DNA of 64,000 bases, taken from assembly GCA_964476125.1 (NCBI GenBank), contig CAYZAE010000007.1, positions 10,290 to 74,289 of the forward strand. The letters run 5' to 3'. Positions 23,743 to 62,467 of the stretch are shown here, in pieces; the first letter of the stretch is position 1, and every line of letters starts with the position of its first letter. The notes below the pieces were generated by a model. It was not told the origin of the DNA, did not search any database, and was given only the letters and a program-made list of their open reading frames with translations. The position numbers were made by a program, and so were the translations under genes. Source of the DNA: an uncultured Verrucomicrobiota bacterium (GTDB lineage: Bacteria; Verrucomicrobiota; Verrucomicrobiia; Limisphaerales; CAIMTB01).

Positions 23743-24549
23743 TCAGCTCAGGAGCCGCAGGGCGGCCTGGGGCTGGGCGTTTGCCTGGGCGAGCATCGCG
23801 GTGCCCGATTGCACGAGGATGTTGTACCTCGCGTATTCGGTGCTTTCCTGGGCGACATCGACGTCCTTGATGCGGCTGTTGGCGGACATCAGGTTGGTCT
23901 TCTGGATCGCGAGTTGTTCGTTGGTGTAGTTGAGTCGGGTGAGATTGGCCCCGATGGTGGCGCGGTCCGTGGACAGCTGGGTGATGGCCGCCTTGACGTT
24001 GGTGAGGGCGGTGACGCCTCCGTTTGCGGCGGAGAGATCCATGCCCTGGGTGGCGTCGGTGTAGGTGGCGGTGCTGAGGTCGACGGCGGACATGGCCCAG
24101 GTTGCGGCTTCGCTATCGACGGTGACGTTCAGGGCGGTGGAGCCGAAGAGGCTGACGCCGTTGAAGTCCTTGGTGGCGATGTCGTCGACGTAGGCGCCGA
24201 GTTCCTGGTATTCCTTGTCGTAGAGGGCTTTGTCAGCCGTGGACTTGGTGACGTCCTGGGCGAGGACCGCGAGTTCGCTCATGCGATCCAGGGCCTTGGA
24301 GGCCTTCTTGAGGAAGCCCTCCTGGGTCTGGGTGAACGAGACGGCGCTCGTGATGTTGTTGCTGGTGGCGTTGATTCGGTTGACCTGTGCGTCGAAGCGC
24401 ATGGACACCGCGAGTCCGGCTGCGTCGTCTTCCGGGGAAACGATTTTCGATCCGGAGGACAGGCGTGATAGCGACTTGGCCAGGCGATTGGAGGAATCAG
24501 CGAGAAGCTGAGAGCTCTGCTGGGCCGAGACGTTTGTGTTGATGACCAT
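23743..24549 (-). CDS. fliC: Flagellin paralog (short type)
   Basis: ATG at 24549 (MVINTNVSAQ) aligns with paralog 1 and with an identical SD spacing. The ORF-track start 24555 is a GTG two codons upstream. Confidence 0.95.
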   Translation of the reverse strand: MVINTNVSAQQSSQLLADSSNRLAKSLSRLSSGSKIVSPEDDAAGLAVSMRFDAQVNRINATSNNITSAVSFTQTQEGFLKKASKALDRMSELAVLAQDVTKSTADKALYDKEYQELGAYVDDIATKDFNGVSLFGSTALNVTVDSEAATWAMSAVDLSTATYTDATQGMDLSAANGGVTALTNVKAAITQLSTDRATIGANLTRLNYTNEQLAIQKTNLMSANSRIKDVDVAQESTEYARYNILVQSGTAMLAQANAQPQAALRLLS

Positions 24550-24554
24550 AACCA

Positions 24555-24612
24555 CTCTTTCCTTGAGCGGCCCCGGGAGGGGCCTTGTTGTTTTTTAACG
24601 GCATCCTTGCCG
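24555..24612 (-). promoter_or_regulatory. Flagellin-2 mRNA leader with two CsrA-type GGA sites
   Basis: Minus-strand RNA has CGGC-AAGGAU-GCCG (24599-24612) and CUCAAGGAAAGAG (24555-24567) over the SD. Confidence 0.5.
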
Positions 24613-24686: not shown

Positions 24687-24714
24687 GCATCGGCCGGATG
24701 GCCGGATGTCTTTA
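24687..24714 (-). promoter_or_regulatory. sigma28-type promoter of flagellin-2
   Basis: Minus strand reads TAAAGACA-N12-GCCGATGC. The -35 overlaps the stop codon of the upstream HD-GYP gene. Leader length is about 130 nt, as for flagellin-1. Confidence 0.5.
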
Positions 24715-25959
24715 GCAATACACCAGCAGCGACTGGGTGATGTCGCTGACGAGGTTGTGGTTCTTGAGTTTGGTGATGTGAGGGAGGCTGAGGGCTTCGC
24801 CGGCCCGGATGAGGAGGATGCCGTTGGAGGTGTAGATGCCGCTGGCGAGGACCATTCCGGGGGTCAGTTCGGAGATGAGGACTTCGCGTTGGCGGCGGGG
24901 GACGACGGCATGGGGCAGGCTGCGGGTGAAGGCGCGGACGGCTTCGGGATCGAAGGCGGAGCCGCTGGCATTGCGGATCCATTCGACGGCGACGGGGCCT
25001 TCGGTGGGGCAATGGGCGTAGGCGACGGCGACGGCCAGGAGGCGGGCGAGCCAGGGGATTTGATCGCGGGAGAGGTGGTCGGGGTATCCGGTGCCGTCGA
25101 AGCGTTCGTGGTGGGCCCGGATGATGGTGCCTACGGCTTCGAGGTTATGGCCGAAGTTGGCGAGTTCCTGGCCGGCGGCGGGGTGACGTTCGATGAGGAG
25201 GCGTTCCGATTCGTCGAGGCTGTTGGGATCGGTTTGCCATTTGCGGATGAGGCTGCGTGGAGTGCCGAGGAGGCCGATATCGTGGAGCCAGGAAGCGATC
25301 TCAAAGATTTGGCGGTCGTCGGGGGAGAGTTCGAGGCTGCCGGCCATGGCCTTGCAGAGTTCGAAGACGCGGCGGGCCTGGTGGGCGAGGATGGGGTTGA
25401 AGGCCTCCAGGGATTTGACGCTGAGAAGGATGGAGCGGTGGAGGTTGTTGTGGAGGGCGCGGTTGAGAAGGTCGAGTTCGGAGTTTTGTTCGGCGATGCG
25501 GGCGACTTTGGCGGAGAGTTCCGCGTTCATGCCGCGGGTGGCTTCGTAGAGGGCGGCGTTGGATCGGAGCAGTTCGAACCGCTGGACGGCGTTTTTTACG
25601 GCCGCGAGGAGTTCCTCGCGCAGCCAGGGCTTGATGATGAACCGGTAGATTTCGCCTTTGTTGATGGCATCGATGGCGACGCTGAGGCTGAGAACGGCGG
25701 TGATGAGGATTCGCGAGGCGTCGGGCTGGAATTGTTTGGCCTGGGCGAGGAATTCCAGGCCGGAGAGCTGGGGCATTTGCTGGTCGGTGATGATGACACC
25801 GAAGGATTCCTTTTTGATCCGCTCGAGCCCGTCGAGGGGATTGGCCAGAGCCACCACATCGTAGCCCTCCCGTTGAAGTGCGCCCGAGAGTGCAATGAGG
25901 ACGATCTGTTCGTCGTCGATGATCAGGATCCGGTTGCGCGGGTCGGGAGAGTCGGCCAT
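24712..25959 (-). CDS. Response regulator with HD-GYP (c-di-GMP phosphodiesterase-type) output domain
   Basis: 415 aa. REC (ILIIDDEQ...VIITDQQMPQLSG...FIIKPW), then HDIGLLG...HHERFDGTGYP. Confidence 0.88.
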   Translation of the reverse strand: MADSPDPRNRILIIDDEQIVLIALSGALQREGYDVVALANPLDGLERIKKESFGVIITDQQMPQLSGLEFLAQAKQFQPDASRILITAVLSLSVAIDAINKGEIYRFIIKPWLREELLAAVKNAVQRFELLRSNAALYEATRGMNAELSAKVARIAEQNSELDLLNRALHNNLHRSILLSVKSLEAFNPILAHQARRVFELCKAMAGSLELSPDDRQIFEIASWLHDIGLLGTPRSLIRKWQTDPNSLDESERLLIERHPAAGQELANFGHNLEAVGTIIRAHHERFDGTGYPDHLSRDQIPWLARLLAVAVAYAHCPTEGPVAVEWIRNASGSAFDPEAVRAFTRSLPHAVVPRRQREVLISELTPGMVLASGIYTSNGILLIRAGEALSLPHITKLKNHNLVSDITQSLLVYC

Positions 25960-27991: not shown

Positions 27992-30187
27992 TCAATGGGC
28001 GAGGGCGAGGTCGAATCCGGCTTCCTGCGGGGAATCCTCGCGGCCATTGCGGTGGGAGCTTTCGGGGTGCAGCAGATCGTTGACATCGAGGATGAGACCG
28101 ACGCGACCGTCGCCCAGGATCGCTGCACCGGCGATAGCGTGGCAGGGTTTGAAGGATTCGCCGAGACTCTTGATGACGACCTCCTGTTTGCCGAGCAGTT
28201 GGTCGACGAGGAGGCAGCGGCTCTCCTGGTCGGATTCCAGCACGACGACGATGGATTGGGTGGGGTCCTCGCTGGCGGGTTCGATGCCCAGGTAGCGGTG
28301 GAGTCGGAGCATTGGGCACTGCCGGTTCCGGACGTTTACGAGTTCGCCCCGACGCTGGACGGTGGAGATCATCGCGGCCGTTGGGCGGAAGGATTCGCGC
28401 ACGGCCAGGGTGGGGAGAATGAACCGTTGGTCGCCGACCCCGACGATAAGGCCGTCGATGATGGCGAGGGTGAGCGGTAGGCTGATGGTGAACGTGGCGC
28501 CCAAGCCTGGAGTGGAAGCGATTTCGATTTTGCCGCGGAGGCTGCTGATGTTGCGCCGGACGACGTCGAGGCCCACGCCGCGTCCGGAGATTTCAGTTAC
28601 TTTTTCCGCGGTGGAGAATCCCGGGGCGAAGATCAGTGCGAAGACCTCCTGATCGGAGGGGGATTCGTCCTCGCGGAGGAGTCCCTGTTTGCGGGCCTTG
28701 GCGAGAATGCGATCCCGGCTGATACCGGATCCGTCGTCCTTGATTTCGATGACGATGTTGCCGCCGCGGTGGAAGGCGCGGAGTTGGATGGTGCCGTTGG
28801 GAGATTTGTTGGCGGCGATGCGTTTTTCGGGGGATTCGACGCCGTGATCGACGGCATTGCGCATCATGTGGACCAGGGGGTCCTCGAGTTTTTCGATGAG
28901 GTTGCGGTCGAGTTCCGTTTCTTCTCCGGAGAAGACGAGTTCGACCTGTTTGCCGGCCTTGATTGAGAGGTCCCGCACCAGGCGCTTCATTTTCTCGAAC
29001 GTGGCCTGGATTCGAACCATGCGCAGGGACATGGCGGTGCGCTGGAGTTCGGCGGTGAGGCGTCCGAGTTGGGTGAGGTGGCGTGCGAGTTGGGGGGTTT
29101 GCGAGGTCTGGAGGTCCGGGTCGTGGGCGACGAGCGACTGGGCGATGACCAGTTCGCCGACGAGATCCACGAGGCCGTCAAGTTTTTGGGTGTCGACTTT
29201 GACGAACCCGGCGCCGGAGCGGTGGTTGGGGCGGGTGGGTGCGTCACCTCCGGAGGTGACTTGGGGGGAGGCGGTGCCCTGGGGGGCTGGGGAAGTGGAG
29301 GGGCTTGGAGCGGCGGATGCCTGGCCTGCGGTGTCGTTGGTGGAGGGTAGGGTTCCTCGGTTGATGTGGCGCCGGATCCGTTCGATGAGGGGCAGTGTGG
29401 GGAGGCTGATCGGGGTGGGCAGGGCGGCTCCGTTGAGCTGGATCCGGATCTCCTCGACGAATCGGCGCAGGGTGTCGGCGCCGACGAGGATGATGTCGAT
29501 GACCGTGGCATCGATCTCCATTTTTCCCTGGCGGGCGAGATCGAGAAGGGACTCGAGGTCGTGGGCCAGGGTGTGGATGGGCTTGAGGTTGAGGAATCCG
29601 GAGCCGCCTTTGAACGTGTGGAAGGCGCGGAAGATCGAGTGCAGGGTGTCGGCGTCGGTCGGGCACTTTTCGAGGGTGAGCACGCCCTGTTCGATGGTGT
29701 TGAGATGTTCCTCGGATTCCGCGAGAAACTCCCGGAGCAGGTCCCCGTCCCGGGCCAGGTCGAGGAGAAGGGCTTGTTCCTGTCCGGAGGCTGGGTGGTC
29801 GGGGTTGGGAGTGCCGGTGTCGGCGGGGTTGGGCCCATTGCCGGCGGGGGTTGGAGCGGTCAACTCCTCGGGAATCTCGGGGAGGGGGCGTTCCTGTTCG
29901 AAGGCGGCGAGAGCGGTGCGCATCCAGGCGGCCCAAAGGCCGAGGCGCTCAAGGCTGTCCGCGGTGAAGCCTCCGGCATCCAGGGCGGCCTCCACGGATT
30001 GCCGGGCGGCGGCGAGGGCGGCGGAGAGGGGTGGAGGGACCGGACCATCCTTGGTGGCGGTTTCGATTTCTGCGACGAGGCTGTTGATGGGGAGAAGGCC
30101 GTCGTCCTTGCCGGGGCTGGCGAAAACCAGTTCCAAGGCGATTTTCTCTACCCGTTGAGAAATGGCAGAGAGGGTGGGGTCGCTCAT
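27992..30187 (-). CDS. cheA: Chemotaxis histidine kinase CheA
   Basis: 731 aa. Hpt SIFRAFHTFKGGSGFL, dimerisation FVKVDTQKLD, N-box HMMRNAVDHGVE, G-box GRGVGLDVV, and a C-terminal CheW-like domain. Confidence 0.94.
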   Translation of the reverse strand: MSDPTLSAISQRVEKIALELVFASPGKDDGLLPINSLVAEIETATKDGPVPPPLSAALAAARQSVEAALDAGGFTADSLERLGLWAAWMRTALAAFEQERPLPEIPEELTAPTPAGNGPNPADTGTPNPDHPASGQEQALLLDLARDGDLLREFLAESEEHLNTIEQGVLTLEKCPTDADTLHSIFRAFHTFKGGSGFLNLKPIHTLAHDLESLLDLARQGKMEIDATVIDIILVGADTLRRFVEEIRIQLNGAALPTPISLPTLPLIERIRRHINRGTLPSTNDTAGQASAAPSPSTSPAPQGTASPQVTSGGDAPTRPNHRSGAGFVKVDTQKLDGLVDLVGELVIAQSLVAHDPDLQTSQTPQLARHLTQLGRLTAELQRTAMSLRMVRIQATFEKMKRLVRDLSIKAGKQVELVFSGEETELDRNLIEKLEDPLVHMMRNAVDHGVESPEKRIAANKSPNGTIQLRAFHRGGNIVIEIKDDGSGISRDRILAKARKQGLLREDESPSDQEVFALIFAPGFSTAEKVTEISGRGVGLDVVRRNISSLRGKIEIASTPGLGATFTISLPLTLAIIDGLIVGVGDQRFILPTLAVRESFRPTAAMISTVQRRGELVNVRNRQCPMLRLHRYLGIEPASEDPTQSIVVVLESDQESRCLLVDQLLGKQEVVIKSLGESFKPCHAIAGAAILGDGRVGLILDVNDLLHPESSHRNGREDSPQEAGFDLALAH

Positions 30188-31488: not shown

Positions 31489-32349
31489 TCAGGTTTGGAT
31501 GGAGACGAAGGCCTGGAGGGTGTCGAGATTGTCGTAGGTCTCGATCATGTAGCGGGGCAGGTCGACGGGGTTGAGTCCGACGAGTTGGAGGGCGTCGGCG
31601 CGGCCGCGGAGGGCGAGGGCGTGATGGCCGTAGCCGAAACCCATGAAGTGGGCGATGAGGTCGCCCAGGTAGACGAAGGAGGCGAGCCGTTCATGGCCGA
31701 TGGCCTTGACGGGGTCGTGGTGGTTCCAGACCGAGGCGACGAGGTCGGCGGGAAAATTCCAGCGGGCAAGCAGGCGTCCGCCGATTTCGGCGTGTTGGAC
31801 GCCGAGGATTTGGGCTTCGCTTTCGAGGAGTGAGGCCTGGTTGATTTCGATTTCGCGGGTGAGTCGCTGGTAGCTGCCCTCAAGGGCCTGGGCGAGGACG
31901 ATTTTCCCGATGTCGTGGAGGATGGCGGCGGTGAAAACGACGCCTTCGTCGGCGCCGGCGTCGCGGGCCATGCTTTTGGCGGCGAGTGCGGTGGCCACGC
32001 TGTGTTTCCAGAGGCCGCCCTCGTCGATTCCGTAGCCCTTGGGGGTGGCTTTGAGGGTGCGGGCGCCGATGATGGCGACGACGAGTTCGTAGACGGCTCC
32101 GAAACCGACCCGGATGACGGCTTCGAAGAGGTCGGAGACGGAGGACGAGTAGCCGAGGGTGGCGCTGTTGCAGAGCCTGAGGACGGCGGCGGTGAGGCTT
32201 GGGTCGCTGGAGATGAGGTTGACGATGGATTCGCTGTCGGCGTCCGGCAGGGAGAGCTGATGGAGGAGCCGCGGCAGGATGACCGGTGCGGGCGGCAGGG
32301 TCTGGACCCGGTCGATATAGGTGTCGAGACTCTTGTTCAATGCTTCCAT
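31489..32349 (-). CDS. HDOD-domain signalling protein
   Basis: 286 aa. LPPAPVILPRLL...SDPSLTAAVLRLCNSA...AAILHDIGKIVL. Confidence 0.8.
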   Translation of the reverse strand: MEALNKSLDTYIDRVQTLPPAPVILPRLLHQLSLPDADSESIVNLISSDPSLTAAVLRLCNSATLGYSSSVSDLFEAVIRVGFGAVYELVVAIIGARTLKATPKGYGIDEGGLWKHSVATALAAKSMARDAGADEGVVFTAAILHDIGKIVLAQALEGSYQRLTREIEINQASLLESEAQILGVQHAEIGGRLLARWNFPADLVASVWNHHDPVKAIGHERLASFVYLGDLIAHFMGFGYGHHALALRGRADALQLVGLNPVDLPRYMIETYDNLDTLQAFVSIQT

Positions 32350-33778: not shown

Positions 33779-34699
33779 TCAAATGATTCCGTCCAGGATT
33801 TGGGGAAGCCGGGCGAGACTGTGTTTCAGGTCGTTCCGGAGCATCTCCTGATCCTCCTCGGTGCGATCGGGGAAGAGAATTCCCCAGCCAGGGAGCTGGA
33901 GCCATGCTTCCTCGTTGATGGGTGCGGGGTTGCCGCTGTCGCCGATGCGGTGCAGGCGGACGATGTGGTTGGCGAGTTGGACGGCGGCGACCAGAGGGGC
34001 GTGACGGGTGGCCTGGGTGGGATCGGCGTGCCAGCGGGCGGTGTCGACGATGCTGTCTGGGAGCCTGTGATGGGCGAGGTACATGGCGCCGAGTTCGCAG
34101 TGATCCATGCCGAGCAGTTCGATTTCGATGTCGCGGAGGTCGCTGGTGGAGTTGGCGGCCTGAGTGCAGACGGCTCCGAATTCGGTGGGGAATTCGGCGG
34201 CCATGACGATGCGGCCGACGTCGTGGAGGAGGCCGGCGACGTATTCGAGTTCGTCCTGGGCGGGTTGGATGGCGCTGGAGATCTCGCGGGTCATGATGGC
34301 GGTGGCGATGCAGTGTTGCCAGAAGCCGCGCCAGGGGAAGGGGTTGTGACGGGAGATTTTCTGGAGGTCTTCGATGACGGGGGTGGACATCGCGAGTTGT
34401 CGGACCTGCCGTATGCCGAGGTAGAAGACGGCTTCTTCGATGCTGGTGACGGGGGAGGAGAGTCCGTAGTAGACGGAATTGACGAGGCGCAGCATCCGGG
34501 TGGCCATGCTGGGGTCGCGTCGGATGACCTCGGAGATTTGGGCGGTGAAGCGTTGTTCCGCATTCAGGAGTTCGCGGAGGACGCCGTTGATGCTGCTGAG
34601 TGATGGCAGAAGGGCACAATTGCTGATCCGCTGGATAATGGCGTTCCTCTCGAGGGGAACGCAGCCTGGTGCGGGGGCGGCTGGCGGCGGCGTGCTCAC
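33779..34699 (-). CDS. HDOD-domain signalling protein, first gene of the che operon
   Basis: LPSLSSINGVLRELL...RDPSMATRMLRLVNS...AGLLHDVGRIVM. A GTG at 34699 sits 12 nt downstream of a sigma28 -10 element. The ORF-track start 34849 would override both divergent promoters. Confidence 0.75.
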   Translation of the reverse strand: MSTPPPAAPAPGCVPLERNAIIQRISNCALLPSLSSINGVLRELLNAEQRFTAQISEVIRRDPSMATRMLRLVNSVYYGLSSPVTSIEEAVFYLGIRQVRQLAMSTPVIEDLQKISRHNPFPWRGFWQHCIATAIMTREISSAIQPAQDELEYVAGLLHDVGRIVMAAEFPTEFGAVCTQAANSTSDLRDIEIELLGMDHCELGAMYLAHHRLPDSIVDTARWHADPTQATRHAPLVAAVQLANHIVRLHRIGDSGNPAPINEEAWLQLPGWGILFPDRTEEDQEMLRNDLKHSLARLPQILDGII

Positions 34700-34710
34700 T
34701 TTCTGCCGGT

Positions 34711-34737
34711 CTATCGGACGGTTGGCGGAAAAGTTGA
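34711..34737 (-). promoter_or_regulatory. sigma28-type promoter of the HDOD-cheR-cheD-HDOD-cheB operon
   Basis: Minus strand reads TCAACTTT-N11-TCCGATAG. Confidence 0.55.
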
Positions 34738-34792
34738 ACCGGGACAGCAAAAATGTCGTGGGTCGGTTTTTTCCCCGGTTTTGTGTTTTGGC

Positions 34793-34819
34793 TAAAGGAC
34801 CGGCAAGAACTGCCGATGG
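34793..34819 (+). promoter_or_regulatory. sigma28-type promoter of cheX
   Basis: Plus strand reads TAAAGGAC-N11-GCCGATGG. The -10 ends 9 nt before the cheX ATG. Confidence 0.55.
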
Positions 34820-34827
34820 GGGTGGTG

Positions 34828-35310
34828 ATGATTGCCAATGTCGAGACACTGGTGAACAGCGCCGTCACGACGGTCTTCGACACCATGTTGGGACTTCCCA
34901 TGAAGGACGCTCCCGTGGAGGCCTGTGTGTTTGGGGATGCCCCCCAGATCGCAAGTGCCGTGGGGTTCGCCGGGTCGGCCTCGGGTGTGATCTATCTTTA
35001 TACGACGGTCCGTTTCGCGGGCCGGATCACGGGAGGGCTGCTGGGGCTTCCGGAAGCGGAGGCTCAGCGGGAGGACTACGTGAACGACGCCATGGGTGAG
35101 ATGGCCAACATGGTGATGGGCCATGTGAAGTCCCGCCTGACGGATCGCGGCGTGAAGTGCGTGATGACGATCCCCTCGATCGTCCGGGGGTCCGGACTTG
35201 GCATTGAGGCGGTGAGTCATACCAGGGTGCAGCGGATGGGATTCCGCAGCGGAGACGATTTCGTGTTGGTGGAGGTACTGATCGAGAACAGCGACGGTAA
35301 GGGGAAATAA
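34828..35310 (+). CDS. cheX: CheY-P phosphatase CheX (CheC/CheX/FliY family)
   Basis: MIANVETLVNSAVTTVFDTMLG N-terminus. Family motif D-x3-E-x2-N ... P is present as DAMGEMAN-x21-P. Confidence 0.8.
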   Translation: MIANVETLVNSAVTTVFDTMLGLPMKDAPVEACVFGDAPQIASAVGFAGSASGVIYLYTTVRFAGRITGGLLGLPEAEAQREDYVNDAMGEMANMVMGHVKSRLTDRGVKCVMTIPSIVRGSGLGIEAVSHTRVQRMGFRSGDDFVLVEVLIENSDGKGK

Positions 35311-35332: not shown

Positions 35333-36475
35333 ATGGGCCCAAAGATACTTACGGTCGACGATAGCAAAACGATCCGCATGATTGTGGCGAGGGCATTCAA
35401 ATCCTTCGCGTGCGAGATCCTAGAAGCGGCGGACGGCGTGGAAGGATTAGCCGTCGTGAACCGGGAGAAGCCCGACATCATCCTGCTGGATTACACCATG
35501 CCGGTGATGGACGGCTTCGAGATGCTCAACAAGCTCAAGTCGGATCCTGATACGCGCAATATTCCGGTGGTGATGCTCACTGCCGAGGCAGGGCGTGACA
35601 ACGTCCTGAAGATTGCGCGCCTGGGTGTCCGCGACTATCTGGTCAAGCCGTTCAAAGAGGACCTGGTGGTGGAGCGTGTGGGGCGCATCATAGATTTGAA
35701 GGCCTGGCACGAGGCAACCGCCAAGGCCAAGCGCTTCGACGATCCCCTGCAGATCCTGCTGGTGGACGACAAACCCGCGATCCTGGATCTGGTGAAGTCG
35801 GGGCTGTCGGACACCAACTGGGTGTTGAATGCGCTGACGCAGGCGGGGCAGGCGGTGGACTTCTGTTCCCGGCAGATGCCGGACGTGATCATGGTCAGTC
35901 TTTCGCTGACGGAAGGGGCCGGGTTCATGCTCTTCCAGATGATGCGGGCGGCGTTCAAGACCAAGGCCATTCCGGTGTTTGCGCTGAGTGTGAAGACGGC
36001 GCTTGAGGAGCAGCAGAGGGCGCAGCAGATGGGGTTCTCCGGCATCATCACCAAGCCGATTGATGTTGAGGATCTCAAGTCCAAGGTGACCCGTGCGCTC
36101 AATCTGGATACCTCGTACCGGTACTTCCTGATGAAGGACGGGGTGCTGCTGCTGAAGCTGCCCGCCAACTTCAATCCGCATGCCGCCAATGACATCACCA
36201 TGAACCTGCGGACCAAGGTTACCGAGAGCGTGGATGCGGGTCTGGGTCGGTTGCTGATGGACATGAGCCAGCTGTCGAGTGCGGATGTGAATCTCATCAA
36301 GCTGGGAATCACGGTGACCAGCCTGTGCCAGGAACTCGGTGTCAAACTCACCATGATCGGTTCCGCGGCGGTGAGTGCCGAGTGCAAGAATTACGAGGAA
36401 ACCAAGGACTGGCAGTTCGTTAACAGTTATGAAGAAGGCCTGTCTCAGCTCAATGGCGCCTCGGCCGGCGGGTAG
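35333..36475 (+). CDS. CheY-like receiver / degenerate receiver / STAS-like three-domain protein
   Basis: 380 aa. REC1 has DD, LLDYTMPVMDG, MLTAE, LVKPF. REC2 has Ser (VIMVSLSL) at the phospho-Asp position. The C-terminal about 110 aa (LLLKLPANF...LMDMSQLSSADVNLIKLG...LTMIG) resembles the STAS/anti-sigma-antagonist fold. Confidence 0.7.
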   Translation: MGPKILTVDDSKTIRMIVARAFKSFACEILEAADGVEGLAVVNREKPDIILLDYTMPVMDGFEMLNKLKSDPDTRNIPVVMLTAEAGRDNVLKIARLGVRDYLVKPFKEDLVVERVGRIIDLKAWHEATAKAKRFDDPLQILLVDDKPAILDLVKSGLSDTNWVLNALTQAGQAVDFCSRQMPDVIMVSLSLTEGAGFMLFQMMRAAFKTKAIPVFALSVKTALEEQQRAQQMGFSGIITKPIDVEDLKSKVTRALNLDTSYRYFLMKDGVLLLKLPANFNPHAANDITMNLRTKVTESVDAGLGRLLMDMSQLSSADVNLIKLGITVTSLCQELGVKLTMIGSAAVSAECKNYEETKDWQFVNSYEEGLSQLNGASAGG

Positions 36476-37028
36476 CCGGTCGGTGCGGTTTTCCCGGGGC
36501 GTTCTGGCGGTGCTCCTCGCGGTCCCGATGTTGTCGTGGGGGGCGGTTCCGCCGGCGGATTCGCACTACACGCTGCGAACGCGCAAGGAGCCGAAGACCA
36601 CGCGAGCCTATCTTCCCACGGTCGGGCCCATTCCCCTCCGGATCCGGCGTCCCGCGCCCCCGTCGGTCCCCGCAGTGCTTCCGCCGCTGGCGATGAGGGA
36701 TCCGGAGCCCGCGCCGCAATCCACCCGCACCAATCTGGTCGCCGAAATCCCCACGGATATGGGGAAGTTGTCGCCGGATGACCCTGCGGATGGCGGTGCC
36801 GACATTGGCGCGGGAGGGGACGGTCGCAATCCGCTCGATCCTGGTGGGACCGATGCAAACGTCAGTCCGATCGTCACGCCCGGGATGCTGGTGCACTACT
36901 TCAAGCCGGCGAGCAGCAATGCGCCCGGTGGGGCGATCTCGTTGCCGGTCTTTCTTCCCGCCTCGCCGCCGCCGCCCTCGACGGTGCCGGGTGGGAACGT
37001 CAGTTCGGCGACCTATCGGTCGAAATAG
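36429..37028 (+). CDS. Hypothetical secreted Pro-rich protein
   Basis: ATG at 36429 (MKKACL...), signal-like GVLAVLLAVPMLSWGA. No recognisable domain. Overlaps the preceding gene by 47 nt. Confidence 0.5.
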   Translation: MKKACLSSMAPRPAGSRSVRFSRGVLAVLLAVPMLSWGAVPPADSHYTLRTRKEPKTTRAYLPTVGPIPLRIRRPAPPSVPAVLPPLAMRDPEPAPQSTRTNLVAEIPTDMGKLSPDDPADGGADIGAGGDGRNPLDPGGTDANVSPIVTPGMLVHYFKPASSNAPGGAISLPVFLPASPPPPSTVPGGNVSSATYRSK

Positions 37029-37066: not shown

Positions 37067-38821
37067 ATGACCCCATCCAACCCATCCTTCCCCGCCGGAG
37101 TTGAATCCCGATCCCTGGATCGAATCGGGTGCGATTCGGACGGATCGGGTGGGAGGGGCGGCGGGACCCGCTTCCGGTCCAACGCCCGCCCCGGCTTCCG
37201 CTTCCGCTTCCGCCTCCGGGCCTGGTCATGGTCCTGGTCGCGGATTGTGGCGGTGCTTTGCCTCCTGGCGGTGGGTGAATGGCCGGCGAGGTTGTCGGGT
37301 TCGGACGCGCCGCCGATGGCGGGGCCTCCCCCGCGTCCTGGGCGGGAGGTGTCGGGTGTCGGTCCTGGGGCTGGGACGAATGCGGTGTCTGCGGGAGGGG
37401 CTGCAAAGCCTGCGGCCGCCCGCCACGAGCCGGCGCCGAAGGCGCAGGAATCCGCGCATGAGCCAGCTTCGAAGGTGGTTGAGCCGGCGCATGCGCCGCC
37501 GGCCAAGCCGGTGCGGGACGGTCATGAGGCGGCTGTGGCCGCGACGGGTCACGGGGAAGGGGCGGGTTCGGGAGCGGCAGCGGCAGCGGCAGCGGAGTCG
37601 GGGCACGGGGTTTCCGGGGCGGCCGCGCAGGTTCTTCACGAAAAGAACATGCTGTTCGCCTCCACCAACCTCATCATGTCGGATCTTGAGCAGCGTCGGG
37701 CGGCGGCGCGGAAGGCGGAGATCGAGAAGTTCGAGCAGATCCTGGAGAATGCGCGCCGGTTGCGTTCGGCGAAGATGTACGAGGAGGCGCTGCCGAGTTT
37801 CATGGCCGTTCTGAACGGGAACGCGCCGGAGGACCTCAAGCGGTCGGCGCTTCTTGAGCTTGCGTTGATCGCGCAGGAGAGGAATGAGCTTCCGCGGGCG
37901 CTGCAGGTGCTGTCGCAATACCTCACCCGGTGGCCGCAGGATCCGAGCGCCCCGGAGATCCTGTTGCGACAGGGATTGATCTACCGCCAGCTGGGCATCC
38001 ACCAGATGGCGCTTTCGAAGTTTTACGCGACGATGACGTCGTCGCTGGTGGTGAAGGATGAATTGTTCGACTACTACAGGCGACTGGTCCTGCAGGCGCA
38101 GGCTGAGATTGCCGAGACGCTGGCGATGCAGAGCCAGCATGCGGAGGCGGCTCGGGCGTTTGCGCGGCTTTTGAAGGAGGATTCGCCGACCTTGAACCGG
38201 GTCCGGGTTCACTACCGGTACATTCAAAGCCTGGCGGCCCAGGGGAAGCTTTCCGAGACGGTGGGGCAGGCGCAGTTGTTTCTTTCGAAGTATGAGGATG
38301 TCGCCGAGCAGCCGGAGGTGCGATTCCTGCTCGCCACGGCGCTGAAGAAGTTGAATCGGAAGAGCGAGGCGCTGCTTGAGATCCATCGGCTCTTGGCGTC
38401 CCAGCAGGGTGAGGCCCGGGATCATCCGGAGACGCTGGCGTTCTGGCAGCAGCGAACCGGGAACGAAATCGCGAACCAGCTTTATCAGGAGGGCGACTTT
38501 GTCCATGCGCTCGACATCTACCAGAGTCTGCTGGTGTTGAATGCGACGCCGGAGTGGCAGTTCCCGCTGCGGTATCAGATCGGACTGGCTTACGAGCGTT
38601 TGGAGCAGCCGGCGAAGGCGTCGGAGTCGTATGGGGCGATCGTGTCGATGGGGAAGGATTTGGGGACGAACGCGGCGCCGGCGTTGAGGACGACCCTGGA
38701 CATGGCGCGGTGGCGGCAGGATTTCCTGAAGTGGCAGGAGCGGGCGGAGGCGTCGCGGCGCGGGCTGGGATCGCTGATTGACTCGGCCCCGACGTCGGGC
38801 AGCGTGACAAACAGTTTATGA
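37067..38821 (+). CDS. Membrane-anchored TPR-repeat protein (start uncertain)
   Basis: 584 aa frame. One hydrophobic segment (RIVAVLCLLAVGEW), a low-complexity Ala/Pro/Gly linker, then multiple TPR-like helices (YEEALPSF..., LQVLSQYLTRWPQDPSAPEILLRQGLIY..., FVHALDIYQSLL...). Confidence 0.65.
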   Translation: MTPSNPSFPAGVESRSLDRIGCDSDGSGGRGGGTRFRSNARPGFRFRFRLRAWSWSWSRIVAVLCLLAVGEWPARLSGSDAPPMAGPPPRPGREVSGVGPGAGTNAVSAGGAAKPAAARHEPAPKAQESAHEPASKVVEPAHAPPAKPVRDGHEAAVAATGHGEGAGSGAAAAAAAESGHGVSGAAAQVLHEKNMLFASTNLIMSDLEQRRAAARKAEIEKFEQILENARRLRSAKMYEEALPSFMAVLNGNAPEDLKRSALLELALIAQERNELPRALQVLSQYLTRWPQDPSAPEILLRQGLIYRQLGIHQMALSKFYATMTSSLVVKDELFDYYRRLVLQAQAEIAETLAMQSQHAEAARAFARLLKEDSPTLNRVRVHYRYIQSLAAQGKLSETVGQAQLFLSKYEDVAEQPEVRFLLATALKKLNRKSEALLEIHRLLASQQGEARDHPETLAFWQQRTGNEIANQLYQEGDFVHALDIYQSLLVLNATPEWQFPLRYQIGLAYERLEQPAKASESYGAIVSMGKDLGTNAAPALRTTLDMARWRQDFLKWQERAEASRRGLGSLIDSAPTSGSVTNSL

Positions 38822-39255
38822 ACAAGGTTGTATCGGCAGCCGGAGCGCCTGGGATTGGCGCGGATCTGGAGGGGCACCTCGCCCTGTGCCGGGAGGTGCT
38901 GGAGTTGGTGGAGCGGGAGGGGGAGGCGTTGCGGCAGCCTGGAGAGTTTGAAGGCAGGGACTTCGCGGTGCGTCGGGCGTCGCTGCTGCCGCGTCTGGAG
39001 AAGTCTCTGGGTGCGCTGCGGCATGCCCGGGAGGCCTGGCTGCGGCTCGACCCGAGGGTGAGGAGCCGGCAGACTGATCTGGATTCGCTGCTTCGCGACA
39101 ATCAGAATTTGATCATGAAAATCATCGTCCTGGACAGGGAGAACGAGCAGGCGCTGCTGCGGCGCGGCCTGCTGCCTCCGGGACATCTGCCGACCTCGCA
39201 GAGCCAGCGTCCGCACATGGTGGCGGCCCGGTACGCCAAGAACCTCCCAGCCTGA
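38818..39255 (+). CDS. Small helical hypothetical protein, possibly FlgN-like
   Basis: 145 aa. ATGA overlap with the TPR gene. Helical heptad pattern with LLRDNQNLIMKIIVLDRENEQALL, reminiscent of the FlgN family. Weak call. Confidence 0.4.
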   Translation: MNKVVSAAGAPGIGADLEGHLALCREVLELVEREGEALRQPGEFEGRDFAVRRASLLPRLEKSLGALRHAREAWLRLDPRVRSRQTDLDSLLRDNQNLIMKIIVLDRENEQALLRRGLLPPGHLPTSQSQRPHMVAARYAKNLPA

Positions 39256-39264: not shown

Positions 39265-40764
39265 ATGCCCATCGAGCGGATTCTCGTACTCGAAGACGAT
39301 CTGATCGTCCGTAAGAACCTGGAGCAGCAGCTGCGCCAGCGTCGGTACGAGGTCGTGGCGGTTTCGACCCTCGCCGCGGCGCAGGAACAGCTCGGTCGTG
39401 ATTCGTTTGATTTGATGTTCGTCGATGTCCGGCTTCCGGACGGCGAGGGCACGGATCTGCTGCGGATGGTGAAGCAGCGGCCCCAGAGTCCCCTGGTGGT
39501 TTTCGTGACCGGATTTGGTTCCGTGGAGTCGGCGGTGGACTGCATGCGGAACGGCGCCTTCGATTATTTGATCAAGCCCTTCTCGGCGGATCAGATCGAG
39601 ATCACGCTGCGGAAGGCGACGGAATTCACGCAGTTGTTGAAGGTCAGCCGCCTGTTGAACCAGGAGGATGAGGAGACCGGGTACGAGCTGCTCGGGCCGA
39701 GTCCAGCGATCGAGAATCTCCGGGCGCTGATCCGGCGGGTGGGGCGGACGGATGCCACGGTGCTGATCCAGGGGGAGAGCGGCACGGGCAAGGAGTTGGT
39801 GGCGCGCACGCTGTATCGGGAGAGCCCGCGGGCCGGGGCGCCCTTCATCAAGCTCAACTGCGCCGCGGTCTCTGAAAGCCTGATCGAGAGCGAGTTTTTC
39901 GGACACGAGAAGGGGGCGTTCACCGGCGCGCTGAGCAAGCGCGAGGGGCGTTTCGAGCTGGCCCATGGGGGTACCCTGCTCCTGGATGAGATCAGCGAGA
40001 TCAGCCCCACGGTCCAGGCCAAACTCCTGCGGGTGCTTCAGGAAAGGGAGTTCGAACGGGTCGGCGGCGCCCGGACCATCAAGGTGGACGTCCGCGTGAT
40101 CGCCACCACCAACCGTCTGCTCGAGCAGAGCGTGGAGCGGAAGGAGTTTCGTCAGGATCTCTATTTCCGGCTCAACGTGGTTCCGATTCGCGTGCCGCCG
40201 TTGCGCGAGCACCGGGAGGACGTGCCTTTTCTCGCCCAGCATTTCCTGCAGCGTTTTGCCCGCAAGCACGGCGTGCGGGTGCGCGGGATCGCGGAGGAAT
40301 GTCTGCAGGCGTTGAGCCGGCACGACTGGCCGGGCAATGTGCGGGAACTCCAGAACGTCATCGAGCGTGCGGTGATTCTCTGCGGGGACGCCCCGAATCT
40401 GGAGACTGAACACTGCTGCCTGCCGGCCTCCTCGCGCGGGGGCCCGACTCCCGCGGTCGCCGCGGCCCCGGCCTGTGTGCTCACCCCGGAGTCCGGTTCC
40501 AACGGCGCAGCCGCAATCCCGGCCGCGGTTCCGCCCCACGGAACCGAGCCGATGATGACCCTCTACGACCTGGAGAAACGGCACATCCTCAACACGCTGG
40601 AGCAGTGCAACAACAACCGCACCCAGGCGGCCCGGCTGCTCGAAATCAGCGTGCGCACCCTCCGGAACAAACTGCATGAATACGGCGTCATGCCGGCGGT
40701 GGCTCCGGAGGCGGATTCGGAGGATGCGGCGACTCCGGTGACCGCCGACGGCAAGTCCGCCTGA
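39265..40764 (+). CDS. sigma54-dependent response regulator (NtrC/FleR/FlrC class enhancer-binding protein)
   Basis: 499 aa. REC (ILVLEDD...[13 protein letters not shown]), AAA+ ([21 protein letters not shown]), and C-terminal Fis-type HTH ([20 protein letters not shown]). Confidence 0.93.
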
Positions 40765-47998: not shown

Positions 47999-48382
47999 AT
48001 GATCCAGGCACTCTTCAACCAAACGAACTACGTCGGGGCGAAGAAACTGATGGAGGCCACGATGCTCCGTCACGAGGCCATCGCGAGCAACATCGCGAAC
48101 CTGGAACGTCCCAAGTATCAGCGGATCGACCTGGCACCCTCCTTTCAGCAGGAGCTGGGGCGGGCGCTGGGCAGCCGGGATGCGGGGCAGATTGCGCGCG
48201 TGGAGCCCAAACTGATGGTGGATCCCGAGGCGGTGGCGGCGAACAAGGACGGGAACAACGTCCGCCTGGAGACGGAGCTCGCCGCCTTGAGCCAGAACTA
48301 CCTCGAACATGCGGTCGAAAGTCAGCTCGTCACCGGAAACCTCCTCAAACTTCGCCTGGCCATCACCGGCCGCGCGGCCTGA
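47999..48382 (+). CDS. flgB: Flagellar proximal rod protein FlgB
   Basis: ATG at 47999. RHEAIASNIANLERPKYQRIDL...NNVRLETELAALSQN. Confidence 0.9.
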   Translation: MIQALFNQTNYVGAKKLMEATMLRHEAIASNIANLERPKYQRIDLAPSFQQELGRALGSRDAGQIARVEPKLMVDPEAVAANKDGNNVRLETELAALSQNYLEHAVESQLVTGNLLKLRLAITGRAA

Positions 48383-48387
48383 ATCCC

Positions 48388-48822
48388 ATGACCAACCTCG
48401 TTCCTGGAATCCAAAGCACCACCGCCGCCCTGAACGCGGAGCGGACGCGGCTCGATATCATCGCCCAGAACATCGGCAACGCCCACACGACGCGGGGAAT
48501 CGATGGCAAACCCTACCAGCGGCAGCAGGTGGTCTTCGAGGCGGTGCTCAACGAGGCCCAGGGGGCCGGACGGAATGGGGTGGCAACCTCGGGGCCCAAG
48601 GTGAGCCAGATCATCAAGGACACCCGGCCCATGCGCACCATCTTCGAGCCCACCCACCCGCACGCCGATCCTGCGACCGGCATGCTCTCGCTGCCCAACG
48701 TGGATATCTTCGAGGAAATGGCGGACCTGATCGCCGCCGGGCGGACCTTCGAAGCCAACATCGCGGTCATGAAGACCGGAAAGCAGATGACCATGCAGTC
48801 CCTTGGCATCGGGCGCCGCTGA
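48388..48822 (+). CDS. flgC: Flagellar proximal rod protein FlgC
   Basis: ATG at 48388. ALNAERTRLDIIAQNIGNAHTTR...PNVDIFEEMADLIAAGRTFEANIAV. Confidence 0.92.
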   Translation: MTNLVPGIQSTTAALNAERTRLDIIAQNIGNAHTTRGIDGKPYQRQQVVFEAVLNEAQGAGRNGVATSGPKVSQIIKDTRPMRTIFEPTHPHADPATGMLSLPNVDIFEEMADLIAAGRTFEANIAVMKTGKQMTMQSLGIGRR

Positions 48823-48851
48823 ACTTCTGAACGATCCCCCGCGCGCTCATC

Positions 48852-49238
48852 ATGAACACCCTCGGCTCCATCGGCGGACTTTCCAACCTGGCGAACCAGA
48901 CCTTCGTTCCACGGATGGTGCCGGGACCCGGTTCCATCCGGCCGACGGAATTGCAGGACCTGGCGCGCACCGCGGCGGCCCAGCCGTCGGCTCCGGGCCA
49001 GAGCGGATCGGCCTCGGATGGGTCCTTCTCGGGGCTGCTGGGGAAGATGGTTTCCGAGGTCAACGCCAAGCAGGCGGCTGCGGGTCAGGCGGTGGCCGAT
49101 CTCCAGGCGGGGAAGCCGGTCACGCTTCACCAGGCGATGATTTCCATGGAGGAAGCCAGCATTTCGTTCCAGCTGATGGCGGAGGTTCGGAACCGCCTTC
49201 TCGAGTCGTACCAGGAACTGATGCGAATGCAGGTCTGA
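48852..49238 (+). CDS. fliE: Flagellar hook-basal body protein FliE
   Basis: 128 aa. LHQAMISMEEASISFQLMAEVRNRLLESYQELMRMQV. Confidence 0.88.
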   Translation: MNTLGSIGGLSNLANQTFVPRMVPGPGSIRPTELQDLARTAAAQPSAPGQSGSASDGSFSGLLGKMVSEVNAKQAAAGQAVADLQAGKPVTLHQAMISMEEASISFQLMAEVRNRLLESYQELMRMQV

Positions 49239-49250
49239 GGTCGTGTCATC

Positions 49251-50936
49251 ATGAACGAGAATCTCGCCAAGGTCGGGCAGCAACTGCTGGGAATCTGGAA
49301 GCAGCTCGGGGTCAATCAGCGGGTCCAGATCGGCGTCGCCACCCTCGCGCTTCTGATCGGAACGATCGGGGTCGCCATCTGGTCCGGGCGGTCCGCCGAA
49401 GGTCTCCTCTACTCCCGGCTTTCCGACGCCGAGGCGGCCAAGGTGGTCCAGGCCCTGGACGAGGCCAAGATCCCCTACACGGTCGGTCGGGGAGGCTCCA
49501 TCTACGTGCCTGCCGACAAGGTCACCACCACCCAGGTCCAGCTCGCCGGCCGGGGAATCGCCCGCGGCGACACCGTCGGCTTCGAGATCTTCGACAAACC
49601 CAACTTCGGCATCTCCGACTTCATCCAGCGCGCCAACTACCTGCGCGCCCTCCAGGGGGAACTGGCCCGGACCATTGCCCAGCTCGACGACGTCGACAAG
49701 GCGGTGGTCAATCTCGTTCTTCCGGAGAACCGGCTGCTCGCCGACAAGGACCGCCATCCGACCGCCTCGGTGCTGGTCCGGCTCCGCGGCAACCTGCCGC
49801 TTTCCCCTTCGACGGTGAACTCCATCCGGTCGCTGGTTGCCAACGCGGTGGAGGGGCTCAAGCCCAACTTCGTCACGGTGGTGGACAACAAGGGGCATTC
49901 GCACGGGGAGACGGCCGACGAGGATTCCGTGGCTGGAGCCACGGCAAACCAGCTGGCGATGCGACGGGAGCTGGAGGCTTATTTGTCGAAGAAGGCGGAA
50001 GGAATGCTTGAGACCGTGCTGGGGCCGGGCCAGGCCGTGGTGCGGGTTTCCGCGGACATCAATTTCGAGACTGTTTCGCGCATCGAGGAGAAGTTCGATC
50101 CCGAGGGTCAGGTGATCCGGAGCCAGACGCGCAACGATGAGAACATGGATAGCACGACGGCCGACACCGCGGCCGCGGTGGGGGTGACGGCGAACACGCC
50201 CTCGGCCTCGAACGCTGCGGGTGGAGCCCCGGCTCCTGCGGCGGCTCCGGCCGCGGCTCCCAACTCCACCAAGAACCGGAAGGTGCTGGGAACCACGGAG
50301 TACGAGATCGGACGGACGACCAGCAACACCTATCAGGCGGCCGGCGGCATCAAGCGTATCTCGAGCGCGGTGACCGTCGCGGCGCGCATGGAGGGAACCG
50401 GAGCGGATCGCAAGGCGGTGCCGCGGACGCCCGAGGAACTCGAGAAGCTCCGTCGGGTGGTCCAGAACGCCCTGGGCTACGACACCACCCGGGGCGACCA
50501 GGTGATTGTGGAGGAACTGACCTTCGACCGTGAGTTCGTCACGGAGCTGAACAAGCGTTTCGACAATCAGGAAAAGCGTGATTTCTGGTGGGGCGTGGGT
50601 CGCTCGGCGCTCTATCCGGGCGTCGCCCTGGTGATCCTCATGGTGCTCCTCCGTCTGGTGAAGCGCACCAAGGTCGAGGAGTTCAGCTTCGGCATTCCCG
50701 TGGGACAATTTCCGTCGTCGGGCCCTGGCGGCGGCGGATCCGGCGGGGCCCTGAGCGCGAGCGGCGGCACCGGCGGCGGCGCGGGCAAGGGCCAGGTCGG
50801 GCAGGGCTCCGATTGGTTCGGCGAACCCCGCGTCGTGACCGTCGAGGTGCTCAACCAGCTAGTCCGTGAAAATCCCACCAACATGACCGGTGCCATCCGC
50901 GCCTGGCTGAATCGTGGAAGCCCTCCCCCGAAATAA
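49251..50936 (+). CDS. fliF: Flagellar MS-ring protein FliF
   Basis: 561 aa. GRGIARGDTVGFEIFDK...YLRALQGELARTI...LVLPE and a C-terminal TM. Confidence 0.93.
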   Translation: MNENLAKVGQQLLGIWKQLGVNQRVQIGVATLALLIGTIGVAIWSGRSAEGLLYSRLSDAEAAKVVQALDEAKIPYTVGRGGSIYVPADKVTTTQVQLAGRGIARGDTVGFEIFDKPNFGISDFIQRANYLRALQGELARTIAQLDDVDKAVVNLVLPENRLLADKDRHPTASVLVRLRGNLPLSPSTVNSIRSLVANAVEGLKPNFVTVVDNKGHSHGETADEDSVAGATANQLAMRRELEAYLSKKAEGMLETVLGPGQAVVRVSADINFETVSRIEEKFDPEGQVIRSQTRNDENMDSTTADTAAAVGVTANTPSASNAAGGAPAPAAAPAAAPNSTKNRKVLGTTEYEIGRTTSNTYQAAGGIKRISSAVTVAARMEGTGADRKAVPRTPEELEKLRRVVQNALGYDTTRGDQVIVEELTFDREFVTELNKRFDNQEKRDFWWGVGRSALYPGVALVILMVLLRLVKRTKVEEFSFGIPVGQFPSSGPGGGGSGGALSASGGTGGGAGKGQVGQGSDWFGEPRVVTVEVLNQLVRENPTNMTGAIRAWLNRGSPPPK

Positions 50937-50942
50937 GGATGT

Positions 50943-52004: not shown

Positions 52005-52587
52005 GTCCATCCGGTTTTCCGAACCCCTCCGCTCCGTCACCCTGAGCCGCCGCCCCGCCGCCTTCTCCCCCGAGGAACTGGAGGCCCACCGGCGCCGCGA
52101 GGAACAGGCCTACGAACGCGGCCTCATCGACGGCGAACGCCGCCTGGGCGAGCAGTTGATGCAGCAACGTACTGAGCTCCAGCATCTCCACGCCGGTATT
52201 CTCGCCTCCCTCGGCAACGCCGTCTCCCAGGTCGTGCGCGACACCGAAACCTCCCTCATCGACCTCGCCTTCGAGATCGCCTGCAAACTGGTCGACGACC
52301 TCCCCATCAAACGTGAATTGATCGAGAAAAGCATCCAGGCCGCCCTCGCCAAGGTCAGCGAAGCCACCCAGATCAGCATCCATCTCCATCCCGAGGACCT
52401 CGAACTGCTCCAGAAAAACACCTCCGAGACCCCTCCTGAACCCGCCGGCTCCCGCTCGATCCGATTCGTGGCCGATGCCGAGGTCGGACGCGGCGGCAGC
52501 CTGGTCCGCACCGAATTCGGCGTCATCGACGCACGCCGCGAGACCCGCAAGAAACGCGCCAAAAAGGCCGTCGCCGCTCCCAAGTGA
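51994..52587 (+). CDS. fliH: Flagellar export apparatus protein FliH
   Basis: ATG at 51994 (11-nt overlap with fliG). Position between fliG and fliI, with an E/R-rich coiled N-terminus. Confidence 0.78.
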   Translation: MLPKSIRFSEPLRSVTLSRRPAAFSPEELEAHRRREEQAYERGLIDGERRLGEQLMQQRTELQHLHAGILASLGNAVSQVVRDTETSLIDLAFEIACKLVDDLPIKRELIEKSIQAALAKVSEATQISIHLHPEDLELLQKNTSETPPEPAGSRSIRFVADAEVGRGGSLVRTEFGVIDARRETRKKRAKKAVAAPK

Positions 52588-53960: not shown

Positions 53961-53963
53961 GCC

Positions 53964-56655: not shown

Positions 56656-56659
56656 ATCT

Positions 56660-57097: not shown

Positions 57098-57118
57098 ATT
57101 CAACCCGGATCAATCAAC

Positions 57119-57946: not shown

Positions 57947-57954
57947 TCCCCACC

Positions 57955-58632: not shown

Positions 58633-58644
58633 TCAGTCCCAGCC

Positions 58645-61347: not shown

Positions 61348-61373
61348 TCCGAACTTTCACCGCCCGCCCCGCC

Positions 61374-61643: not shown

Positions 61644-61668
61644 CCGGCGGGCCGTTGCGGCCAAAGCC

Positions 61669-62433: not shown

Positions 62434-62467
62434 AGGCCCTCCTCCCAGGCCGCGCCGGATCCCACGC

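Follow-up and report, generated by a model that had tools for sequence, protein, structure and literature searches.

An uncultured bacterium of the Limisphaerales (Verrucomicrobiota) encodes a response regulator of 380 amino acids (aa) that consists of a phosphorylatable CheY-like receiver (REC1), a pseudo-receiver (REC'), and a C-terminal STAS domain. Its gene (35333-36475, plus strand; ATG start, supported by orthologues and an AlphaFold2 (AF2) model) lies directly behind cheX, within the chemotaxis (che) and flagellar (fla) genes of the 64,000-nucleotide (nt) stretch of contig CAYZAE010000007.1 that was analyzed here (positions 10,290 to 74,289; hereafter the window). The regulator represents a previously unstudied family of response regulators with a protein-binding output domain, which occurs across the phylum and is tightly linked to CheX. 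It combines parts of the CheY, PleD, and anti-sigma factor antagonist families and is a member of none of them. With a probability of roughly 55%, we consider it to be a response regulator of the chemotaxis pathway, with a STAS docking domain as its output that would be gated by Asp phosphorylation.

The two receiver domains

The start codon of the regulator gene is preceded by GGAG at a distance of 8 nt, and 22 nt separate the gene from the stop codon of cheX. A search of 5.8 billion proteins retrieved at least 120 full-length orthologues (~381 aa, 64-100% identity) with an identical start residue. Pfam recognized two Response_reg stretches in the protein (2.3e-43) and no other significant match. 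Residues were compared in 80 relatives across Limisphaerales, Verrucomicrobiales, and Opitutales, which were the best 80 of at least 592 relatives in a scan of one genome per species. Nearly all of these are titled Verrucomicrobiota, including the cultured Pelagicoccus mobilis, and a few have titles that disagree with this or are generic (e.g., Limnocylindria for L008, or Akkermansia muciniphila).

REC1 (aa 3-122; 35339-35698, plus strand) was delimited by Pfam Response_reg, matches in the PDB, and residue conservation. It contained D9, D10, D53 (in LLDYTMPVMDG), T83 (in MLTAE), Y102, and K105 (in LVKPF), together with the CheY-style TAEA motif. D9, D10, D53, T83, and K105 were invariant in the relatives, and Y102 was Tyr in 79 of 80, with a single Y102F. 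The sequence matches of REC1 in the PDB were CheY and RR468 (1e-18 to 2e-20), and its model superposed on CheY, RR468, and Spo0F structures at 1.3-2 Å (1.4-2 Å for CheY). When compared with E. coli CheY, REC1 scored 66 bits, versus ~20 bits for the remaining receiver domains of the window. Mean identity to the relatives (n = 79) fell from 71% in REC1 to 50% in REC' and 39% in the STAS domain, a gradient consistent with conserved partners that constrain the receiver and an output that differs more between lineages. The strongest constraint thus falls on REC1, and together with the invariance of its phospho-switch residues this predicts that REC1 phosphorylation is functional.

REC' (aa 139-257; 35747-36103, plus strand) corresponds to the second Response_reg stretch and resembles the D2 pseudo-receiver adaptor of PleD. 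In an ungapped alignment of the two receivers, the acceptor Asp was matched by Ser189 (VIMVSLSL), the Thr by S219, the Tyr by I238, and the Lys by K241. Position 189 was Ser in 79 of the 80 relatives; D146 and K241 were retained, and the Thr position was variable (V/S/C/A). PleD was the best full-length match of the regulator, both by sequence (2e-25) and in a Foldseek structure search (1.6e-18). The family is publicly annotated as "cell cycle response regulator," a PleD-like label that is explained by the receiver and pseudo-receiver, which together make up a PleD stem, and that is misleading because the regulator has no GGDEF domain. The full-length AF2 model had a mean confidence (pLDDT) of 87.9 and a predicted TM-score (pTM) of 0.55, and the latter value makes the predicted arrangement of the domains uncertain.

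The STAS domain

The C-terminal tail (aa 258-373; 36104-36451, plus strand) was assigned from its AF2 model, Foldseek, and the Pfam matches of orthologue tails. On its own, the tail of the regulator scored 13.5 bits against Pfam STAS (PF01740), below the cut-off of 22.6. Of 20 orthologue tails, 18 gave weak matches to PF01740 (best 1.1e-5) and 11 matched STAS_2. A profile of the tail searched against the PDB reached SpoIIAA and RsbS only at E-values of 0.5-2, and all Foldseek matches of the full-length model were to PleD and receivers, and thus uninformative for the tail. The AF2 model of the tail alone was confident (pLDDT 91.1, pTM 0.83) and showed the order beta-beta-alpha-beta-alpha-beta-alpha-alpha, which is the STAS topology. 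When this model was compared with the PDB by Foldseek, the first 28 matches were all STAS proteins, including Bacillus subtilis RsbS (6jhk; E 1.8e-6, TM-score 0.75/0.79, root-mean-square deviation (RMSD) 2.4 Å over 117 columns), SpoIIAA (1h4y), and Moorella RsbS (2vy9; TM-score 0.77/0.82). The direct sequence evidence is weak and the structure prediction is decisive: the C-terminal domain is predicted to have the STAS fold. The original prediction, which was made from the sequence of the window alone, had named a CheY-type receiver, a pseudo-receiver with Ser at the acceptor site, and a STAS-like tail in the gene immediately after cheX. All three domain calls and the gene order were borne out, and the comparison with SpoIIAA/RsbV-type structures gave a STAS fold rather than the different fold that would have told against the prediction.

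In SpoIIAA, RsbV, and RsbS, a conserved Asp immediately precedes the phosphorylated Ser, which lies at the N-terminal end of helix 2. Helix 2 of the tail model begins at residue 319, a position occupied by M/I/V/L in 80 of the 80 relatives; position 320 is G/N/T/P/S, with no conserved Ser or Thr. These residues suggest that the STAS domain of the regulator is no classical kinase substrate. No HATPase_c_2 or SpoIIE (PP2C) gene was present in the Pfam gene tables, which covered ~59 kb of the window and five related loci, and phmmer searches of the 80 related loci with SpoIIAB and RsbW as queries recovered one weak open reading frame (ORF). A stressosome-like assembly was set aside, as no RsbT- or RsbR-like genes were found. 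The STAS domain also carries a conserved loop, ECKNYEETKDW (aa 350-360).

A search of 1.84 billion representative proteins with the tail profile yielded only 176 clusters. Architectures were derived from Pfam scans for 10 matches, from the sequences for 14, and from the match positions for the rest. The main architecture of this STAS subfamily was REC-REC'-STAS. A REC-STAS variant (P0175) was located in a flagellar locus, again after a sigma54 regulator, and further proteins showed the architectures REC-REC'-STAS-STAS, REC followed by three STAS domains, and REC-REC'-STAS-VWA (P0121, P0255, and P0206). Two others have different heads. P0152 (L093, 1531-3411) is a REC-HD-GYP-REC'-STAS protein, with HD_5 as its HD-GYP domain, and adjoins a REC-HDOD gene, and P0207 (L092, 4430-5956) is a REC-Hpt-REC'-STAS protein encoded outside a che context, in a metagenome-assembled genome (MAG) that also encodes a normal family member. 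REC'-STAS therefore behaves as a portable output module: it follows REC, REC-HD-GYP, or REC-Hpt heads and can contain two or three STAS copies. Searches with the STAS tails of the single-REC variants gave only 5 matches, and the tail had no match in plasmids by tblastn.

Linkage to cheX and conservation of the locus

The cheX gene (34753-35310, plus strand), directly 5' of the regulator gene, encodes a protein of the CheY-P phosphatase family (PF13690, 1.1e-17) with an intact active-site motif D-x3-E-x2-N, read as DAMGEMAN. Among the 77 related loci with upstream sequence, 69 had cheX directly upstream of the regulator gene. Two MAGs contained two cheX-regulator pairs each, namely CAZMKE01 (L056 and L076) and DASRSJ01 (L070 and L082). 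For three of these four paired copies, the locus also contained a CheA gene. The sequence of L070 begins at the regulator gene, and its cheX side lies outside it. The paired CheA proteins scored 787 and 345 bits in the MAG with L056 and L076, and 551 and 524 bits in that with L070 and L082.

The HDOD gene that is divergent from cheX (33779-34750, minus strand; PF08668, 1.8e-50) is a conserved neighbor even where cheX is missing, and HDOD genes flank family members in several otherwise different contexts. As called, the HDOD and cheX genes are 2 nt apart. Translation of cheX probably starts further inside the called gene, at ATG 34816 or 34828; with such a start, the sigma28-type promoter motif TAAA-N15-GCCGAT found by a motif scan (34793-34817, plus strand) would be intergenic, and almost no 5' leader would remain. 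The motif TAAA-N15/16-GCCGAT occurred twice in the 64 kb, versus 0.13 matches expected; the second match (24689-24714, minus strand) lies ~135 nt upstream of a flagellin gene (23743-24555). A relaxed form of the motif was located just upstream of cheX in 25 of the 80 related loci, and 28 of its 67 plus-strand matches in these loci fell within ~5% of the sequence. This enrichment makes the cheX-regulator unit look like a late flagellar (sigma28-type) operon that is conserved across Verrucomicrobiota. A sigma54 promoter was rejected, as consensus matches occurred at chance level and none was upstream of cheX.

Stand-alone CheY and FliM

No single-domain CheY was found in any frame of the 64-kb window. 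Four other receiver domains were present, in CheB, a REC-HD-GYP protein, a sigma54 activator, and a hybrid kinase, and none of them is a stand-alone CheY-like protein. The FliM gene (58645-59676) encodes the N-terminal peptide LSQNEVENLL (aa 15-24; 58687-58716, plus strand). These results agree with the original prediction on the intact FliM peptide and on the missing stand-alone cheY; its statement that the regulator holds the only CheY-like receiver of the locus was right for stand-alone CheY-like proteins and overstated in view of the four additional receiver domains.

In 24 of the 80 related loci, CheA was encoded within 10 kb, and a strongly CheY-like stand-alone ORF was detected only in L074 (81 bits). 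Since the other 23 CheA-containing loci lacked a stand-alone CheY, the regulator is the CheA-proximal CheY-like receiver. On the other hand, L074, L088, L089, and L090 contained an operon of the order CheA-CheW-MCP-CheY-CheB-CheR-(HDOD)-CheX-regulator (MCP, methyl-accepting chemotaxis protein), in which CheY has 121 aa (L088, 5866-14987; L090, 4971-14640; L074, 5113-15041). L090 has two tandem cheX genes, and L074 has cheX on both sides of the cluster. The 383-aa regulator of L088 is 49% identical to the protein of the window over 373 residues, and the 121-aa CheY is a member of a family that is large among Verrucomicrobiota. The presence of this CheY in the operon of the regulator implies that the regulator is not simply "the CheY." The original prediction had named a conventional cheY in charge of motor control, joined to a lack of CheA- or CheX-dependent phosphorylation, as evidence that would speak against it; the first part of this, a conventional CheY, is what these four relatives contain.

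Proposed mechanism and alternative explanations

From the domain identities, residue states, synteny, promoter motif, and family distribution described above, we infer phosphotransfer from CheA, dephosphorylation by CheX, PleD-like dimerization, and gating of the STAS domain. CheA of the adjacent cluster (27992-30187, minus strand), the presumed phosphodonor, would phosphorylate D53 of REC1, and the co-transcribed CheX would strip the phosphate from it. Phosphorylation would repack REC1 on REC' as in the PleD stem, probably with dimerization, and the repacking would alter binding by the STAS domain, so that a partner is gained or lost. As the STAS domain does not possess the kinase-target Ser of SpoIIAA, RsbV, and RsbS, the fused receiver may stand in for the Ser kinase/phosphatase pair, and the system would represent a short-circuited partner switch rather than a classical one.

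Several points weigh against this mechanism. Everything in it beyond domain identity is inferred, and the strong similarity of REC1 to CheY would fit just as well if the regulator were a plain motor CheY with an accessory STAS domain. The full-length AF2 model, with a pTM of only 0.55, did not superpose globally on PleD (RMSD 17-19 Å), so that PleD-like repacking is a proposal only. Furthermore, a clade of 8 loci (L014-L018 and L020-L022) lacked cheX as well as any che gene within 10 kb, which means that coupling to CheA and CheX is not universal, and the paralogue P0207 adjoins a hybrid kinase that is not part of a che cluster. The 8-locus clade retained the divergent HDOD gene as well as the TPR and FlgN-like genes described below, and had no fla genes within 10 kb (e.g., L020, 8716-13895). 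Its flanks contained DUF58/VWA (Bat-like) genes and an alanyl-tRNA synthetase gene.

The alternative that survives best, which is possible and on balance unlikely, is that the regulator is the motor CheY. Phosphorylated REC1 would bind the FliM peptide and switch or stop the motor, CheX would end the signal, and REC' and STAS would be accessory, serving in dimerization or localization or having no part in signaling. The lack of a stand-alone CheY from the 64-kb che/fla supercluster and from 23 of the 24 CheA-containing loci, the retention of LSQNEVENLL in FliM, and the close superposition of REC1 on CheY structures are consistent with this role. On the face of E. coli CheY that binds FliM, residues V91, Y102, V104, and R118 of REC1 aligned with I95, Y106, V108, and K122, which are FliM-binding residues in the structure of CheY with the FliM peptide. 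A phosphatase usually goes with a motor-binding CheY, the gene order cheX-cheY3 is known from Borrelia, and the window resembles spirochaetes in the order of its fla genes and in an FlbB-like gene. However, the conventional 121-aa CheY, which is from a family that is large in the phylum, shares an operon with cheX and the regulator in other Verrucomicrobiota. The conservation of REC' and STAS, with an invariant surface loop, and their reuse behind heads other than CheY argue for an output function. In PleD-type stems, inter-domain packing uses the alpha4-beta5-alpha5 face, and packing of this type in the regulator would compete with FliM binding. Binding of phosphorylated REC1 to the N-terminal peptide of FliM, which would be independent of the STAS partner, has about an even chance of taking place in addition.

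A second and somewhat less likely alternative is a phosphate sink or kinetic modulator that is tethered to CheA and is the fused equivalent of Sinorhizobium meliloti CheY1 and CheS. The STAS domain would dock on CheA, REC1 would drain phosphate from CheA-P, and CheX would empty the sink, which would sharpen and end signaling to another output regulator. CheS, a protein that consists of a STAS domain only, binds CheA, the affinity of CheY1 for the CheA-CheS complex is 100-fold above that for CheA alone, and the loss of phosphate is accelerated (PMC12654446, PMC4214558). The 121-aa CheY in the same operon would give a motif of one kinase and two regulators, and three of the four paired cheX-regulator copies in the two MAGs lie beside a CheA gene. 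CheA of the window has a 147-aa extension N-terminal of Hpt, and no P2 (CheY-docking) domain was detected in the only ~80 aa between its Hpt and dimerization domains. In contrast, most che clusters with the regulator showed no second CheY for which phosphate would be drained, and known sink systems operate without a phosphatase, whereas CheX is tightly linked here. The likeness to CheS is drawn from published descriptions, and neither the clade without nearby che genes nor the paralogue outside che clusters fits docking on CheA.

A classical partner switch, in which the STAS domain as an anti-sigma factor antagonist would sequester an RsbW/SpoIIAB-like kinase or a FlgM-like anti-sigma factor and thereby convert chemoreceptor input into sigma-factor activity, is improbable: the phospho-Ser is missing in 80 of 80 relatives, no RsbW-like kinase, PP2C, FlgM, or FliA gene was recognized in the window or in the annotated related loci (a weak RsbW-like ORF occurred in 1 of 80), and rapid signaling reset by CheX is poorly suited to transcriptional control. 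RsbS and SpoIIAA as the nearest folds, and the late-flagellar unit with its sigma28-type motif and FlgN-like gene, are compatible with such a switch, as flgM and flgN are linked in enterics. So is the STAS protein HsbA, which binds FlgM under the control of a phosphorelay (PMC5085249). The original prediction had proposed that chemotaxis-type phosphorylation is converted into a partner-switching output. The part of it in which Asp phosphorylation leads to a protein-protein output through a STAS domain survives as the best hypothesis, and its classical form is unsupported.

If the STAS domain is a docking domain gated by Asp phosphorylation, its partner may be CheA or the receptor array, by analogy with CheS; this is the leading candidate, put forward tentatively. 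The HDOD or HD-GYP proteins of the cluster, suggested by gene fusion and neighborhood, are less likely. Among them, the REC-HD-GYP response regulator at the end of the che cluster (24712-25959, minus strand; NosR-family-like, of the cyclic di-GMP (c-di-GMP) phosphodiesterase type) is a candidate by Rosetta-stone logic, given the fusion in P0152. The two HDOD genes and the REC-HD-GYP gene in the che cluster suggest that c-di-GMP is tied to the chemosensory system. In Opitutales loci, the REC-HD-GYP gene is located between cheD and cheB. More doubtful is an anti-sigma28 factor of the FlgM type, which is proposed by analogy with HsbA, and a motor component or some other protein accounts for the remainder. 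In the HptB-HsbR-HsbA system of Pseudomonas aeruginosa, a STAS protein controlled by a phosphorelay selects partners that affect sigma28 activity and c-di-GMP, as HsbA switches among FlgM, HsbR, and the cyclase HsbD (PMC5085249). The TPR protein encoded downstream is an unlikely partner, since it has an N-terminal stretch resembling a signal peptide or anchor (judged by eye) and weak YbgF/BamD-like matches.

Comparison with known systems

No description of this arrangement was found in the literature searched, in which the term "REC-STAS" did not occur, in agreement with the original prediction, which had not recognized it as a described system. The regulator shares with Caulobacter PleD (REC-REC'-GGDEF) a phosphorylatable receiver followed by a pseudo-receiver adaptor without an acceptor Asp. 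In contrast to PleD, it has no match to GGDEF and contains a 115-aa STAS domain in its place, carries a near-invariant Ser (79 of 80) at the acceptor site of the pseudo-receiver, and is encoded in a che/fla context instead of a cell-cycle context. Like CheY of the spirochaete/Thermotoga-type CheY-CheX systems, REC1 has all CheY switch residues and TAEA, and its gene directly follows cheX in a che/fla cluster in which the FliM peptide is kept. Unlike CheY, the regulator has three domains and 380 aa, scored 94.4 bits against the NCBIfam CheY model PRK10610 (cut-off 189), and in some operons occurs together with a normal CheY of 121 aa.

CheS and CheY1 of Sinorhizobium meliloti and Agrobacterium likewise provide a STAS domain and a CheY-like receiver from a che cluster; here, the two are fused with a pseudo-receiver between them, and CheX is present (a comparison by published description). 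The HptB-HsbR-HsbA-FlgM/HsbD system of P. aeruginosa similarly has a STAS protein encoded next to fla/che genes. However, HsbA is a separate STAS protein that is switched at a Ser through HsbR, a REC-PP2C-kinase protein, whereas the regulator has neither kinase/phosphatase genes nor a phospho-Ser, and its receiver is fused directly to the STAS domain. SpoIIAA, RsbV, and RsbS have the same fold as the tail (TM-score 0.65-0.82, RMSD 2.3-3.3 Å over ~115 residues). They differ in that the sequence identity is 11-20%, M/I/V/L stand in place of the Ser, the window and the annotated loci contain no gene for a cognate GHKL kinase, and the STAS domain of the regulator is fused to two receivers.

Gene content of the window

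From its left end, the window contained the S10/spc/alpha ribosomal operons and two flagellin genes. These were followed on the minus strand by genes for the REC-HD-GYP protein, a PAS kinase, CheA, CheB, HDOD (31489-32349, minus strand), CheD, CheR, and the HDOD protein next to cheX. Divergent from these were the genes for CheX, the regulator, a Pro-rich protein, a TPR protein, a 145-aa protein, and a sigma54 activator, and after the latter came CheW, a hybrid PAS kinase, an MCP, FliD, and the fla genes from flgB through flhB.

The Pro-rich protein (36429-37028, plus strand) has an N-terminal hydrophobic stretch that resembles a signal peptide. The TPR protein (37067-38821, plus strand) showed TPR and weak YbgF/BamD matches, and the gene for the FlgN-like 145-aa protein (38818-39255, plus strand) overlaps its stop codon (ATGA). 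Alone, the 145-aa protein had no family match; 7 of 11 orthologues weakly matched FlgN (PF05130; best 1.7e-6). This set of three genes is conserved 3' of the regulator gene in Limisphaerales, Verrucomicrobiales, and some Opitutales loci. The sigma54-dependent response-regulator activator (39265-40764, plus strand; NtrC/FlbD/FlgR-like) is also a conserved neighbor.

In the fla region, a 240-aa gene after fliJ (54440-55162, plus strand) had a weak match to FlbB (NF047368; 35 bits, E 9e-9, cut-off 110). FlbB is a collar protein of the periplasmic flagella of spirochaetes, and the fla genes of the window are ordered much as in the flgB superoperon of spirochaetes. The FlbB-like gene is followed by one of 498 aa (55159-56655) that has no family match and occupies the expected place of fliK. 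The GC skew was strongly positive (+0.2 to +0.3) in the region with mainly minus-strand genes and negative in that with plus-strand genes (20000-48000 versus 48000-64000), so that C outweighs G in the coding strands. The window was also rich in long antisense ORFs.

Implications

A wider reading, speculative and unlikely as a whole, is that the family provides a second output of the chemotaxis kinase throughout the phylum. In this reading, a STAS adaptor gated by Asp phosphorylation and reset by CheX would act on a target outside the motor, either the HDOD/HD-GYP proteins of c-di-GMP signaling or a FlgM-type anti-sigma28 factor, with the fused receiver replacing the Ser kinase/phosphatase pair. 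If the proposed gating mechanism is correct, it would be a compact wiring of two signaling systems, in which an Asp-phosphorylated receiver directly gates a STAS docking domain and neither a Ser kinase nor a phosphatase is needed. The regulator would then be the cognate one for chemotaxis in an entire phylum that has been little studied, and would offer a testable handle on the role of STAS proteins such as CheS in chemotaxis operons and on that of the HDOD proteins that repeatedly flank the regulator gene.

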